From assembly GCA_964577685.1 (NCBI GenBank), contig CAZNZT010000008.1, positions 761 through 64,760 on the forward strand: a stretch of DNA of 64,000 nucleotides, read 5' to 3'. The position numbers were made by a program, and so were the translations under genes. The DNA is from an uncultured Methanosarcinales archaeon. GTDB lineage: Archaea; Nanobdellota; Nanobdellia; Woesearchaeales; JACPBV01. Position 1 is the stretch's first letter; every line of letters starts with the position of its first letter. The notes under the pieces are model-generated. The model saw only the letters and a list, made by a program, of their open reading frames with translations, was not told the DNA's origin and ran no database searches. Of the stretch, positions 2-58,052 are shown piece by piece.

Positions 2-631
2 AAAACTAGGGGAAGTTCTCCTAATGCATTTATTCCACTTGAAGGCTTTCCTGGAGAACCTATTGTAAATATTGGTCCTACTAATTACAAGTTCAATATA
101 ACAAGAGAAAGCACTTCCATAGGTTTAGGTCCACTTGTCCATATAGGAGACCTTGTAAACAGATTATCTGGAGAGGATAGAAAATGGTTAGGTAGAGGTA
201 GATTTGATCCGTATATTATAGCAATAGTAAGTTACAATTGGTCAAACTCTGATTTTGAAAGCTATATCCGTTTGCATGGAGGAGACGTATCATCACAATT
301 AGGGCTTCCTCAAGGTAGTATCATAGTACCACCGACCGTTATAAAAGATAAATCGCATAATAGTGGTAGAGGCCCAGGTCTTGCATTAGGCTTTGGCTTT
401 AATGCTCCATTATGGGGAAACTGGGACCTCACCACAACAGCTAGATACAACTGGGTACATCTAGATGGAAGGAATGGAGTTAATTTTGACTTAGATCAAT
501 GGACAGTAGCTATAGGGTTAGTTTATCCAATAGGAGGGCCAAAAAACAAAAAAAGATGGACTATAATAAATGGGATGGTAACCCCCTCTATTGAATATTT
601 CACAAGAAAAATGAGGGCCCTATTTAAATAA
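2..631 (+). CDS. Hypothetical protein, 5'-truncated at the window edge. The open frame runs from nt 2 and is Gly-rich, possibly secreted or beta-rich.
   Basis: Frame 2 stays open from position 2 to the stop at 629-631. The listed ORF at 272-631 is only its C-terminal part. No recognisable motif. Confidence 0.4.
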   Translation, partial: KTRGSSPNAFIPLEGFPGEPIVNIGPTNYKFNITRESTSIGLGPLVHIGDLVNRLSGEDRKWLGRGRFDPYIIAIVSYNWSNSDFESYIRLHGGDVSSQLGLPQGSIIVPPTVIKDKSHNSGRGPGLALGFGFNAPLWGNWDLTTTARYNWVHLDGRNGVNFDLDQWTVAIGLVYPIGGPKNKKRWTIINGMVTPSIEYFTRKMRALFK

Positions 632-4154: not shown

Positions 4155-5424
4155 AACAAAAATACTGGTTGTAGATGATGAATTATATAGTCAAACAAAT
4201 AGTAAAAGAGATTTAATCCCAGAAGAAACTGTAAAAATATTATTTGGTGAAGATATCCAGAGGACAAGAGAAAGAGTATCCCAATTAAATCTAAAAGATA
4301 TCTTAATAGGACTCTTTAAAGGCAAACCGTACCAATTATTCTTTGCTAGTAACTATGAAGAAGCTGAAAGATTACTCAGAGAACATAGAGACATAGAAAT
4401 ACTCCTAACGGATATTAGAATGCCCCACGTAGATGGTTTTCAATTAATTGAGTTATTAAGGGCTATCAATCCTGATTTAGAGGCTATTCTACTAACAGCC
4501 TATGGGAGTATACCAAAATATAGAAAAAAAGCCTTAGAAAGCGGAGTTTTTGGTTTTGTAGACAAGCCGATAGAACTTAATAAAAACAAGCTTTTTGATG
4601 CCATTGAGAGAGCACAACGAAATTATGAAAGGAGACTTGGAGAAAAAGTTAAAAGAGAACTAGCGATAGCTAGAAATATCCAAATGAGATTAAACCCAAC
4701 ACCACCAAGAGATATTGGAGGGATCGAGTTTTCATGCTTCTACAATCCAGCGGATCACATAGGGGGGGATAGTTACGCAATAACATTATTCAGCGATGGA
4801 ACTATAGGCATCATGGTCGCTGATGTCTCAGGACATGGTATAAGTTCTGCTGTTATTAATTCTGCATTTGTAAAAGCTTCAGAATCTCTAAGCAAAACAT
4901 TAAATGATCCAGAAAGAATAGTAAAAATACTATGGAGATGTTTCTATGCACCCCTTTCTGAAGAAGATAGATTCATAACAGCATTATATGCAAAGATTGA
5001 TCCAAAAGAGAGAATCTTGTATGTAGTCAATGCTGGACATCCAAACCCAATTATCTACCGCCCAAGCGAGGATAAATTCTTAGAAGTTGATGGAGACGAG
5101 TATAAAGTATGCCCTATAGGGGTTTTACCATTTGAGAGTATAGAAAAAAAAAGAATTAGCTCACCTCCCCTCAGACTACAAGAAGGAGATATCCTACTTT
5201 TTTACACAGACGGTATTCTTGAACAATATAATAAAGATGAAGAAAAACAATTTAAAGATGTTAGAAATCTCTATGACCTGGTAAAAGCAAATAGAAAATC
5301 GCCATTATCAAAACTACCACAAGAAATTTATAGAAGCTTTATTGATTTTAAAGGAGCTATGCCGCAAGAAGATGATATCACGCTTCTTGCTCTGAGAATC
5401 ACACCATATAACAAACACAACTAA
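4147..5424 (+). CDS. Response regulator: receiver domain fused to a PP2C/SpoIIE-type Ser/Thr phosphatase (RsbU-like output)
   Basis: Receiver start 'KILVVDDE' and 'LLTDIRMPHVDG'. PP2C motifs 'GGDSYAI' and 'VADVSGHGISSA', C-terminal 'FYTDGILE'. Confidence 0.8.
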   Translation: MLETKILVVDDELYSQTNSKRDLIPEETVKILFGEDIQRTRERVSQLNLKDILIGLFKGKPYQLFFASNYEEAERLLREHRDIEILLTDIRMPHVDGFQLIELLRAINPDLEAILLTAYGSIPKYRKKALESGVFGFVDKPIELNKNKLFDAIERAQRNYERRLGEKVKRELAIARNIQMRLNPTPPRDIGGIEFSCFYNPADHIGGDSYAITLFSDGTIGIMVADVSGHGISSAVINSAFVKASESLSKTLNDPERIVKILWRCFYAPLSEEDRFITALYAKIDPKERILYVVNAGHPNPIIYRPSEDKFLEVDGDEYKVCPIGVLPFESIEKKRISSPPLRLQEGDILLFYTDGILEQYNKDEEKQFKDVRNLYDLVKANRKSPLSKLPQEIYRSFIDFKGAMPQEDDITLLALRITPYNKHN

Positions 5425-6659
5425 CCCAAAAAATCTCTAAGCCTCATCTGATTCTTACTTTTTTTCAAAATAACACTCCTTCTTAACAAAATATCTAGCT
5501 TATAATCAAATTTCTTTTTAACCAATTTTCTTGCATATTGCAACATCAAATCCTCTGACGAAAATTCTATTGGCTTATTTCTTAATGTTTTCCTAACTGC
5601 TTCCCTAACAACCCATACTCCTAAAGGAACAGCATACTCTCCTGTGATGAACCTAAAAACCAAAACAGAAGCTTGTCTCTTCTTCCTAAAAAGCTTTTCT
5701 AAAACAGCAAATCTGGCCGCATAATAACCGCCCCCACAGTTCTCTGCATAACCCTTTCTTCCATAATAAGACTCATAATCAGTCATGTACTTATACTGAT
5801 TAGAAAGATTCCATTCAGCACCGGGAGAATACATCTCAAACAACTCATAAGACCACACATCAGGAAAAAACAAGACAATAAAATAGTTGCCTAAATGACC
5901 TCCAAAGTAGGCTTCATAACCACAAAAATCATAATCCCTAACCTTGCCAAGCAAATACTTAGATATAGAATCATCAGTTGCTGTAATACTCCATCTTGTA
6001 GGCACTAATTTCCTGTTAGCCTTAATACCTAAGTTGCCTGTACTTAAAAGTTTTGTTAAGAAATTCTCGTTAAAACCATGCTTATAAAGATAAACCAAAG
6101 CCTGATTGGCAACAAGGTCAATATCAGAAACAACCTTTTCAATCCTAGAATCTACTCTTGGATTTTCCACAAGTTTTGCCTTCTTTAACCTCGCATTCGG
6201 ACCAGTTGGAGCTAAATAAGCGTCTGTTTTTAATCTAAATTTTGGTTTCTCCTTAAGCTCAATCTCAATATCAACAGGCTTAGAAGCCATACCAACCTCT
6301 CGGCTTATATCCAAGAATCTATTTTTTCCTTTAATATCTGCTCTAAACCTAGAATTTATTAGACTAGACCTATAATCTAATATTGTAGGAATAGTAAGGT
6401 TCTGTTCTACCCAACAATGTGGTGCATCATAAATCCAAGCATCATCTCTATGCTCTGGTGGGCTCAGTATCCCAACATAAAGCTTCGGATAAAAATTATG
6501 TCCAATAAACACAGTTGGAGAAGAGCCAACAAAATTATCTTTTGAGATTCTCCTGCCAACCTTAAGAATAGCTTCCGCCCTAGCAAGTATCGGACAAAAC
6601 ACCCGACCACAACTTTGCATGGGGGTTGCTCCTTTACACTTAATACAAGGAATATTCAT
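5421..6659 (-). CDS. Archaeal Nre-family (NreA-like) DNA-repair-associated protein
   Basis: N-terminal Cys cluster 'CIKCKGATPMQSCGRVFCP'. Conserved 'GGGYYAARFAVLEKL...LGVWVVREAV' block. About 400 aa, as is typical for the Nre family. The assignment rests on remembered family features and is not verified. Confidence 0.5.
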   Translation of the reverse strand: MNIPCIKCKGATPMQSCGRVFCPILARAEAILKVGRRISKDNFVGSSPTVFIGHNFYPKLYVGILSPPEHRDDAWIYDAPHCWVEQNLTIPTILDYRSSLINSRFRADIKGKNRFLDISREVGMASKPVDIEIELKEKPKFRLKTDAYLAPTGPNARLKKAKLVENPRVDSRIEKVVSDIDLVANQALVYLYKHGFNENFLTKLLSTGNLGIKANRKLVPTRWSITATDDSISKYLLGKVRDYDFCGYEAYFGGHLGNYFIVLFFPDVWSYELFEMYSPGAEWNLSNQYKYMTDYESYYGRKGYAENCGGGYYAARFAVLEKLFRKKRQASVLVFRFITGEYAVPLGVWVVREAVRKTLRNKPIEFSSEDLMLQYARKLVKKKFDYKLDILLRRSVILKKSKNQMRLRDFLG

Positions 6660-7810: not shown

Positions 7811-7893
7811 GCGTCGGTGGTCTAATGGATATATTACCATAAATGACAACGGCCTTCCAAGCCGTTTATCCGGGTTCAAGTCCCGGCCGACGC
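7811..7893 (+). tRNA. tRNA-Gly (anticodon UCC) carrying a roughly 12-nt insertion in the D-arm region
   Basis: Acceptor GCGTCGG/CCGACGC with discriminator A. Anticodon arm ACGGC-CTTCCAA-GCCGT. T-arm CCGGG-TTCAAGT-CCCGG. The D region is 30 nt where about 18 is expected. Confidence 0.7.
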
Positions 7894-7897
7894 ATTT

Positions 7898-19483: not shown

Positions 19484-19509
19484 CAAGAACTATATTAAAA
19501 ATTTAAAAA

Positions 19510-19655
19510 TGGGGACGCCGGAATTTGAATCCGGGACACCTAGATCTCCATTCTTCATTGGCCCAAAGCCTCAACAGATCATAGGAACTTCAGTCTAGCG
19601 CTCTCCCAGGCTGAGCTACGTTTATGGTTTTGGAACAATCAATTCCAAAATCCCC
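19510..19655 (-). tRNA. tRNA-Phe (GAA) with two introns: a 30-nt intron in the acceptor stem (after nt 5) and a 42-nt canonical 37/38 intron
   Basis: Minus-strand exons: GGGGA|CG TA GCTC AGCCTGGGA GAGC G CTAGA CTGAAG|A TCTAG GTGTC CCGGA TTCAAAT TCCGG CGTCCCC A. Inserts lie at plus 19621-19650 and 19546-19587. Confidence 0.75.
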
Positions 19656-19799
19656 ACAATGCCCAGCCCTAGATCGGAGAATAAAGAAACAATATATAAA
19701 TATTTTTGTTTTTATTAGATAAAGAATCGCTAATTTAAAATCAAAAGATTTAAATAACAAAAAAGACTGAAAACTAGGAAAGAAAAAAGAGGGAGATAG

Positions 19800-56801: not shown

Positions 56802-58052
56802 ATGCAAGAGATACTGGAAAAAGTTCTAAAAAAAATAAAACCAACAAAAGAAGAGGAACTAAAGATAAATAAAAAAATAGAAGGCCTCATAAAAAAAATA
56901 AACAAAAACCTAAAAGATGCCAAAGCAATCCTAGGGGGGTCTGGTATCAAGGGAACATGGCTAAAAAATGCCTATGACTCAGATATATTTGTAAAATTTA
57001 ACTACAAGAAATATAAGAACAGAAGCAATGAGTTATCTGATATACTAGAGAAAATTCTCAAAAAAAGAAGAATAAAATTCACAAGACTGCATGGTTCCAG
57101 AGATTATTTCCAGATTAAAGAAAAAAATTTTACATTCGAAATAGTACCCATACTAGATATTAAAAAAGTAGAAGAAGCAAAGAATATTACTGATGTAAGT
57201 CCACTACACGCAGATTGGGTGAACAAAAAAGTAAAAGGCCTCAAAGACGATGTAAGGCTATTAAAACAATTCTGCAAAGCAATAAATGTATATGGTGCAG
57301 AGAGTTATATAAAAGGGTTCTCAGGTTATGTCTGTGAAATATTAACAGCATACTACAAAGGATTTACAAATGTAATTAAAAATGCATCAAAATGGAAAGA
57401 AAAAACGATAATAGATACCGAAGGATACTGGAAAGGGAAAAACATCTTATCCGAACTTAATAAATCCAAAACAAGATCACCAATAATAATAATAGACCCT
57501 GTCCAACCAGATAGAAACGCTGCTGCTGCTGTAAGCCGAGAGAATTTCATTAAGTTTATAGAAAGATGTAGGGAATTCCTAAAAAACCCTTCAGAAGAAT
57601 TCTTTGAAATTAAGAAAATAAATAAAAAAACCTTAGAAGAGAAGTCAGGAAAAAACCACCTGATAATAATAGAAGCAAAAACAAAAGAGGGCAAAAAAGA
57701 CATCGTTGGTTGTAAATTAATAAAAGTAATAGAATTCATCAAGAAAGAATTAAAAAAACATGAATTCAATATACTAGATTATGGGTGGGAATGGAATAGA
57801 AAAGTTTTATTTTACTTTATCATTAAAAATGAAAAAAAGCCAGATACAATAAAAATAACAGGACCACCAATAAAAGAGAAATTTCATACCAAAAACTTCA
57901 AAAAAAAGCATAGAAATACATTCATAGAAAAAGGGAGAATATACGCCAAAGTAAAAAGAAAATTCAAGGAACCACATAGCCTAATCAGATTCTTATTAAA
58001 AAGTGAATATATAAAGGATAAAGTTAGCTCAATAAGGATAAAAAATGAATGA
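56802..58052 (+). CDS. cca: Archaeal class I CCA-adding enzyme (tRNA nucleotidyltransferase)
   Basis: 'AILGGSGIKGTWLKNAYDSDIFVKF' (pol-beta NT motif GS...D.D) plus a long C-terminal tRNA-binding region. Confidence 0.8.
   Translation: MQEILEKVLKKIKPTKEEELKINKKIEGLIKKINKNLKDAKAILGGSGIKGTWLKNAYDSDIFVKFNYKKYKNRSNELSDILEKILKKRRIKFTRLHGSRDYFQIKEKNFTFEIVPILDIKKVEEAKNITDVSPLHADWVNKKVKGLKDDVRLLKQFCKAINVYGAESYIKGFSGYVCEILTAYYKGFTNVIKNASKWKEKTIIDTEGYWKGKNILSELNKSKTRSPIIIIDPVQPDRNAAAAVSRENFIKFIERCREFLKNPSEEFFEIKKINKKTLEEKSGKNHLIIIEAKTKEGKKDIVGCKLIKVIEFIKKELKKHEFNILDYGWEWNRKVLFYFIIKNEKKPDTIKITGPPIKEKFHTKNFKKKHRNTFIEKGRIYAKVKRKFKEPHSLIRFLLKSEYIKDKVSSIRIKNE

Follow-up and report, generated by a model that had tools for sequence, protein, structure and literature searches.

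We find that a gene for tRNA-Phe(GAA) lies, twice interrupted, on the minus strand of a 64-kb stretch of archaeal DNA (the whole stretch analyzed, hereafter the window). The ends of the gene are G1 at 19655 and the discriminator base, A73, at 19510. One insert, of 30 nt, splits the acceptor stem, and another, of 42 nt, lies at the canonical position 37/38. We put the probability at about 90% that this locus is a real, functional tRNA-Phe gene of a Woesearchaeota-type DPANN archaeon, carrying two protein-spliced introns of the bulge–helix–bulge (BHB) type.

Deleting both inserts leaves a 74-nt sequence that ARAGORN recognizes as tRNA-Phe(GAA), with all 7 bp of the acceptor stem formed. The same program found no tRNA in the unspliced locus or after deletion of the 42-nt insert alone, and it miscalled the gene as tRNA-Ser(GGA) when the 30-nt insert alone was deleted. 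Thus, the original prediction that tRNA-Phe(GAA) can be recovered only by removing two inserts holds; that prediction did not state the strand. The 30-nt insert reads TTTTGGAA-TTGATTG-TTCCAAAA-CCATAAA, letter for letter as described earlier, with a perfect 8-bp stem inside, and the 42-nt insert follows G37, as expected of the canonical intron that had been proposed. The Rfam tRNA model scored the intact locus at 32.6 bits, with an alignment confined to model positions 5–66, so acceptor positions 1–4 were not found by Rfam. The elements of the locus are as follows, in the direction of transcription.

19693..19700, minus strand: TATA-like box, TTTATATA, first base 45 nt upstream of G1; putative promoter element
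19661..19669, minus strand: 5' leader element, GGGCUGGGC, nine bases antisense to D-arm bases 10–18, GCUCAGCCU (19616–19608)
19654..19657, minus strand: 5' strand of the central 4-bp helix of intron 1, GUGG (leader –2 and –1 plus G1 and G2), pairing with CCAU at 19627–19624
19652..19655, minus strand: exon 1, GGGG, tRNA positions 1–4
19622..19651, minus strand: intron 1, 30 nt, acceptor-stem position 4/5; 5' to 3', A, 8-bp hairpin, CCAU, AA
19650–19643 and 19635–19628, minus strand: 8-bp hairpin of intron 1, UUUUGGAA/UUCCAAAA, loop UUGAUUG
19588..19621, minus strand: exon 2, positions 5–37 (acceptor 5–7, D arm, 5' half of the anticodon arm ending in CUGAAG, anticodon GAA), from the Rfam alignment
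19546..19587, minus strand: intron 2, 42 nt, canonical position 37/38, placed by the BHB rule
19576..19585, minus strand: antisense segment of intron 2, CCUAUGAUCU, able to pair with the 3' splice junction and with the anticodon-stem 3' strand (AG|AUCUAG)
19552..19574, minus strand: K-turn-like element of intron 2 (UUGA, hairpin GGC(UUUGG)GCC, AAU bulge, GA, then AGA)
19510..19545, minus strand: exon 3, positions 38–73 (AUCUAG, variable loop, T arm, CGUCCCC-A), with discriminator A73
19505..19509, minus strand: T-run immediately following A73, probably an archaeal transcription terminator

By sequence, both junctions are ambiguous. For the first insert, 4/5 and 5/6 are equivalent, as are 35/36, 36/37 and 37/38 for the second, with no change in the product. 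We placed them by the BHB rule, under which two 3-nt bulges flank a 4-bp helix and each bulge is cut after its second base; the register was checked on the plain 37/38 intron of a Nanohaloarchaea locus (L003). This rule picks 4/5 for the first insert and 37/38 for the second. Hence the acceptor stem, named in the original prediction as the site of the 30-nt insert, is indeed interrupted, at 4/5 rather than at the 5/6 junction given there. For intron 2, registers 35/36 and 36/37 were rejected, as their central helices do not pair. Also rejected was a cloverleaf that retains the acceptor insert, in which only 3 bp can form.

The window has a G+C content of ~33% and contains archaeal genes for Nre, an eRF1-family protein, aIF5A, a class I CCA-adding enzyme and an SMC protein. 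For both proteins flanking the tRNA gene, the closest homologues are named Candidatus Woesearchaeota or Nanoarchaeota, in keeping with a DPANN lineage, and identical DNA is present in two public metagenome assemblies. Two related Woesearchaeota genes (L005 and L007) came from a scan of species-representative genomes with a 25-mer of exon 2. The same 25-mer, applied to metagenomes, gave a single copy of the L007 gene (L011); all other matches were intronless tRNA-Phe genes of other lineages, which served as negative controls. Synteny identified tRNA-Phe downstream of the gene for a conserved 726-aa protein in L027, L029, L030 and L031. No tRNA-Phe was seen beside the downstream PEP synthase gene at six homologues of 76–81% identity, so synteny is confined to the upstream 726-aa protein. 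In viral contigs, exact-pattern scans gave no match. All six relatives carry BHB introns, and the seven tRNA-Phe genes show six different intron sets:

Window: 4/5 and 37/38
L005: 4/5 and 37/38, the same layout as the window gene, with a different hairpin
L007: 3/4, 16 nt
L027: 4/5, D-loop, 25/26 and 52/53
L029: D-loop and 59/60
L030: 37/38 and 59/60
L031: 4/5 and 59/60

In silico excision by the BHB rule converts all seven genes to a 74-nt tRNA-Phe(GAA), with a gap-free alignment. Orthologues that lack a given intron agree with the spliced product: L029 reads GGGGACG without interruption, precisely the predicted spliced junction of the window gene, and the anticodon loop is uninterrupted in L027, L029 and L031. 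More broadly, the rule fits 18 introns in ten genes (including a tRNA-Pro of L020 and a tRNA-Gly of the window), 15 with 4/4 and 3 with 3/4 central pairs. Across these 18 introns, the 3' bulge is almost always A-A/G|N (first base A, second A or G).

Intron 1 itself is close to a canonical BHB. It has 4/4 central pairs and two opposite-strand bulges of 3 nt each, GG|A (19653–19651) and AA|A (19623–19621). The inner helix is 8–9 bp, and a 9-bp outer helix, made of leader and D arm, exists in the window gene, where it is set off from the 3' bulge by an asymmetric 3×4 loop (AUU opposite CGUA). In L007 and L020, the outer helix is contiguous, giving a strict hBHBh' motif. The minimum-energy fold from RNAfold is in a neighboring register, with the AA of the 3' bulge paired to leader UU, so it is uncertain precisely how the 3' site is arranged in the free RNA.

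The 4/5 intron also occurs in L005, L027 and L031, with its central helix kept and compensatory changes in its hairpin. When the four 4/5 introns were aligned, 98.8% of cells were paired in the proposed structure, and six pairs were changed on both sides. Controls slid by 1–3 columns were 27–55% paired, and the observed values were reached by 0–1 of 500 shuffles. That the same architecture is found in independent genomes, with compensatory changes, indicates more than chance. As judged by comparison of sequences, the acceptor-stem intron is inherited across related genomes.

These comparisons also bear on the identity of the 5' exon. Conceivably, the 5' GGGG is coincidental, and the true 5' acceptor part is supplied from elsewhere by trans-splicing or the tRNA works with a truncated acceptor stem. 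Split tRNAs are known in Nanoarchaeum, another DPANN archaeon (PMC4090602). Yet GGGG is positioned precisely one BHB unit upstream, with all four central pairs formed; this arrangement recurs in L005, L027 and L031; the uninterrupted L029 gene has GGGGACG; and the AUAAA preceding C6 pairs with the 3' strand no further than 3 bp. We consider a split or truncated tRNA extremely improbable.

The leader provides a second line of comparison. In the window gene, the duplex between leader element and D arm has a predicted energy of –17.4 kcal/mol, a value reached by 4 of 500 shuffles. Equivalent leader elements are present in L005, L007, L020, L027 and L031, and nine tRNA-Phe genes that lack a 5' intron have none. 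Among acceptor-intron genes, all four that were tested had duplexes of –14 to –17 kcal/mol, matched by no more than 5 of 500 shuffles, whereas those of the nine genes without a 5' intron were unremarkable (–1 to –9.5 kcal/mol). The leader element probably forms the outer helix of the intron 1 splicing motif, as modeled here. The start of the TATA-like box is likewise displaced, lying 45–55 nt upstream of G1 in acceptor-intron genes versus 32–35 nt in the others; that is, the putative promoter is 10–20 nt further upstream in genes with an acceptor intron.

Could the locus instead be a decaying tRNA pseudogene, in which both inserts are junk and never removed? Standard tools give a weak match or none, our view is limited to 64 kb of the genome, and the T arm (19531–19523) has a non-canonical feature, its stem closing with A53:U61. 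A second, intact tRNA-Phe gene may lie elsewhere in the genome, beyond this 64-kb view. To our knowledge, G53:C61 is nearly universal as the closing pair of the T stem. But A53:U61 is common to six of the seven tRNA-Phe genes (window, L005, L027, L029, L030 and L031; L007 has G:C), and its presence in six orthologues marks it as a lineage trait rather than a sign of decay. Moreover, several genomes retain the interrupted architecture, with compensatory hairpin changes and invariant exons; every insert obeys the 4-bp/3-nt BHB rule; and TATA-like box, leader antisense element and T-run terminator are all present. Decay is thus very unlikely. The shared product, the covariation, the leader duplexes and the displaced TATA-like box argue that the locus is a splicing substrate conserved under selection rather than a damaged gene.

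The most heavily interrupted member of the family is the tRNA-Phe of L027 (JGI 3300031357 Ga0307435_1000002, about 4690–4900, minus strand). It has four BHB introns, none of them at 37/38 and each with a 4/4 central helix, and its spliced product equals the window tRNA at positions 1–25 and 44–73. Rfam did not detect this four-intron gene at all. The syntenic spot after the 726-aa gene in L028 (JGI 3300024259 Ga0233437_1000044, 4700–5020, minus strand) holds no recognizable tRNA-Phe. There, a stretch of ~150 nt between a TATA-like box and a T-run contains three copies of GGCGAGTG, has a GTAATATCAAA block in common with the T-arm intron of L027, and adjoins a LAGLIDADG-type ORF (5012–5749). At L025 (ENA ERZ28564302 scaffold_59412, 1503–1981), a 480-nt non-coding stretch upstream of a PEP synthase gene likewise contains no tRNA; it is dense with long hairpins of the form (N)n-TTTTT/AAAAA-(N)n.

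Other tRNA genes are interrupted too. The window encodes a tRNA-Gly(UCC) at 7811–7894 (plus strand) with a 12-nt D-loop insert, ATATTACCATAA, at 7831–7842. ARAGORN miscalls this gene as Tyr(ATA), and Rfam gives a partial match of 22.9 bits. The insert has a 4/4 central helix, AUGG/CCAU, and its 3' motif, CCAUAA|A, is the same as that of the tRNA-Phe acceptor intron; its 5' cut would fall in a hairpin loop and not in a 3-nt bulge, giving a relaxed, BHL-like motif. A brute-force deletion test with ARAGORN did not discriminate among positions for this insert, almost any D-arm deletion being accepted, and the intron was placed by the BHB rule only. A tRNA-Pro(UGG), found in L020 (about 221–320, minus strand) and L021 (JGI 3300031357 Ga0307435_1000139), has a 26-nt intron at 3/4, AACG GG|A ... 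CGUU AA|G, and in L020 a 13-nt leader element pairs with tRNA positions 5–17. In this lineage, then, tRNA-Phe is not the only tRNA with an acceptor-stem intron.

For maturation of the tRNA-Phe, we infer the transcription start, the processing order and the enzymes. Transcription would start ~14 nt upstream of G1 (near 19670), yielding a leader-bearing RNA. The first nine leader bases would pair with the D arm, while the last two, together with G1 and G2, would pair with the CCAU near the 3' end of intron 1. Leader helix, central helix and 8-bp intron hairpin would then create a helix–bulge–helix–bulge–helix, with the cut sites in GG|A and AA|A. EndA would cut at 19652|19651 and 19622|19621, and an RtcB-type ligase would join G4 to A5. 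The 42-nt intron after G37 would be removed likewise, from a slightly relaxed motif. RNase P would then trim the leader, and CCA would be added afterwards. Because the intron 1 motif uses leader nucleotides, its splicing would have to precede trimming of the 5' end by RNase P. CCA is encoded by neither tRNA gene of the window (tRNA-Phe or tRNA-Gly), with which the gene for a class I (archaeal) CCA-adding enzyme at 56802–58052 (plus strand) is consistent.

The original prediction held that an acceptor-stem intron implies an endonuclease with relaxed BHB recognition (of the alpha2beta2 or epsilon2 type). Such an enzyme is not required, given the 4/4 helix, the 3-nt bulges and the outer helix built from the leader. 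This canonical 4-bp/3-nt geometry, together with the strict motif in L007 and L020, means that intron 1 alone does not demand relaxed specificity. Archaeal endonucleases recognize the BHB wherever it is located (PMC4090602). Relaxed recognition is better argued from the 37/38 introns of the window gene and L005, which have 3/4 central helices, and from the D-loop mini-intron of the window tRNA-Gly. The alpha4-type EndA with an extra L3 loop has been assigned to multiple DPANN lineages, in a study whose tRNA survey included one Woesearchaeota genome (PMC5829648). The same study linked L3-loop DPANN endonucleases to increased disruption of tRNA genes and incomplete tRNA sets to undetected disrupted genes (PMC5829648). 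A search for the broad-specificity EndA that had been suggested found no EndA gene in the 64-kb window, either in Pfam scans of window ORFs or by phmmer on six-frame ORFs of at least 80 aa; the phmmer query was the M. jannaschii EndA sequence. No RtcB gene was found in the window either. In the Woesearchaeota loci examined, phmmer on six-frame ORFs also found no EndA. Matches occurred only in the Nanohaloarchaea-type loci L004 and L008, where EndA homologues (E = 1e-25 to 1e-28) lie no more than a few kb from tRNA-Asn and tRNA-Phe genes without introns. These two loci are not relevant to the genome of the window.

In intron 2, the central helix, CUGA (C32–A35) with AUGG (19551–19548), has three of four pairs (C32:G, U33:G and G34:U, with A35 unpaired), and the bulges are AG|U and AG|A. 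The 37/38 introns of the window gene, L005 and L030 share a layout, 5' to 3', of GAUCUG, YUGA or AUGA, a hairpin and N-A-U-G-A. In all three, a GA-hairpin-NNN-GA pattern occupies the same place; the hairpin sequences differ, the UGA and AUGA cores are invariant, and the pair beside the tandem G.A takes three forms (U-G, C-G and A-U). Within the K-turn-like element, UUGA resembles box D' and AUGAAGA resembles box C'. The antisense segment is 100% paired in the three genes, and its invariance means that no covariation can be seen. Its complementarity amounts to 8 bp, interrupted by a 1-nt bulge in L030 and the window gene, and U39 lies opposite the fifth base upstream of the D'-like box. A box C/D guide would be expected to form ~10 bp or more with its target and to set the methylated base against the fifth base upstream of D or D'. 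Intron 2 contains no terminal pair of box C (RUGAUGA) and box D (CUGA), there being no box D after the 3' spacer and no box C before the guide; on inspection of the sequence, the anticodon-loop CUGAAG bears the sole, loose resemblance to box C. Another match to the K-turn pattern, in the Nanohaloarchaea intron of L003, was rejected, as its GA bases lie inside an ordinary Watson–Crick hairpin.

By analogy, intron 2 might be a minimal box C'/D'-type element, an L7Ae-bound K-turn plus a 9-nt antisense, that guides 2'-O-methylation of U39 of its own tRNA-Phe, acting in cis in the precursor or after excision and circularization. Such a role would supplement splicing of the two introns, not compete with it. 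It would fit the presence of GA-hairpin-NNN-GA in three of three known 37/38 introns of the family, with differing hairpins, a varying pair beside G.A and invariant UGA and AUGA cores. In all three, too, the upstream GAUCU pairs with AG|AUC, placing U39 at the fifth base upstream of the D'-like box, and a tRNA-Trp intron that guides Cm34 and Um39 sets a precedent (PMC4033218). Still, only three related sequences are involved, and their covariation measures, matched by 62 of 500 shuffles, are not statistically significant. The antisense stretch, being invariant, does not covary; about 8% of shuffled introns show the GA-hairpin-NNN-GA pattern; the terminal box C/D pair is absent; the duplex is bulged by 1 nt in the window gene and L030; and the L003 intron is a plain hairpin. 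Furthermore, two blocks, 'UGAAGA' and 'CUA.GA', look as if copied from the anticodon arm and may mark the origin of the intron rather than a function. On balance, we regard methylation guiding by intron 2 as a tentative idea, with the odds clearly against it. If true, intron-guided tRNA methylation would extend from euryarchaeal tRNA-Trp to DPANN tRNA-Phe, with a guide of half the size.

Returning to the family as a whole, Rfam gives partial, sub-threshold or no matches for these tRNA-Phe genes, and ARAGORN misses those with an acceptor-stem intron. Failure of both tools on interrupted genes explains why tRNA-Phe can seem to be missing from Woesearchaeota bins, and undetected interrupted tRNAs affect inferences about DPANN genome completeness and codon usage. 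With seven genes in six configurations, this tRNA-Phe family offers a compact natural series in which to follow how BHB introns are gained and lost outside Thermoproteales. An outer helix built from the leader implies splicing before 5' maturation, which can be tested as a constraint on the order in which archaeal tRNAs are processed. In the literature searched, we found no description of a 4/5 intron inherited across a Woesearchaeota clade, of this tRNA-Phe family, of a dedicated leader helix with a displaced promoter, or of a tRNA gene with four introns, as in L027. Reviews give three introns as the maximum for one tRNA gene (PMC8450103, PMC4033280).

The intron type is known, but its placement in the acceptor stem is rare. 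Non-canonical and multiple BHB introns of tRNA genes are known from Thermoproteales, where acceptor position 3/4 is an extreme case (PMC4090602, PMC4033280), and from some DPANN lineages (PMC4090602, PMC4033280, PMC8450103, PMC5829648). Like those of Thermoproteales, the introns described here are short and protein-spliced, have 3-nt bulges and a 4-bp helix, lie outside 37/38, sometimes beside a 37/38 intron, and turn over fast between relatives. They differ in host (DPANN/Woesearchaeota, not Crenarchaeota), in position (4/5), in having a dedicated leader antisense element and a displaced promoter, and in a 3' bulge that is almost always A-A/G|N. Disrupted tRNA genes of DPANN archaea (ARMAN-2, Nanoarchaeum, and predictions for Woesearchaeota and Pacearchaeota) come from the same superphylum, with published data consisting of genome-level counts (PMC5829648). 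The split and permuted tRNAs of Nanoarchaeum equitans, Thermofilum pendens and Cyanidioschyzon merolae resemble the window gene in that sequence outside the mature tRNA builds the BHB and the promoter is moved upstream to fit a longer leader (PMC3218864, PMC4090602). Unlike them, the window gene is contiguous and colinear, and its leader would pair in cis with its own D arm, presenting the acceptor-stem intron. Finally, intron 2 is like the box C/D intron of euryarchaeal pre-tRNA-Trp (Cm34, Um39) in its 37/38 position, its K-turn-like GA motifs and an antisense stretch that would place U39 at the fifth base upstream of a D-type box (PMC4033218). It differs in having a single C'/D'-like motif and no terminal C/D pair, in its length of 42 nt and in residing in tRNA-Phe, and we do not claim membership in that class.
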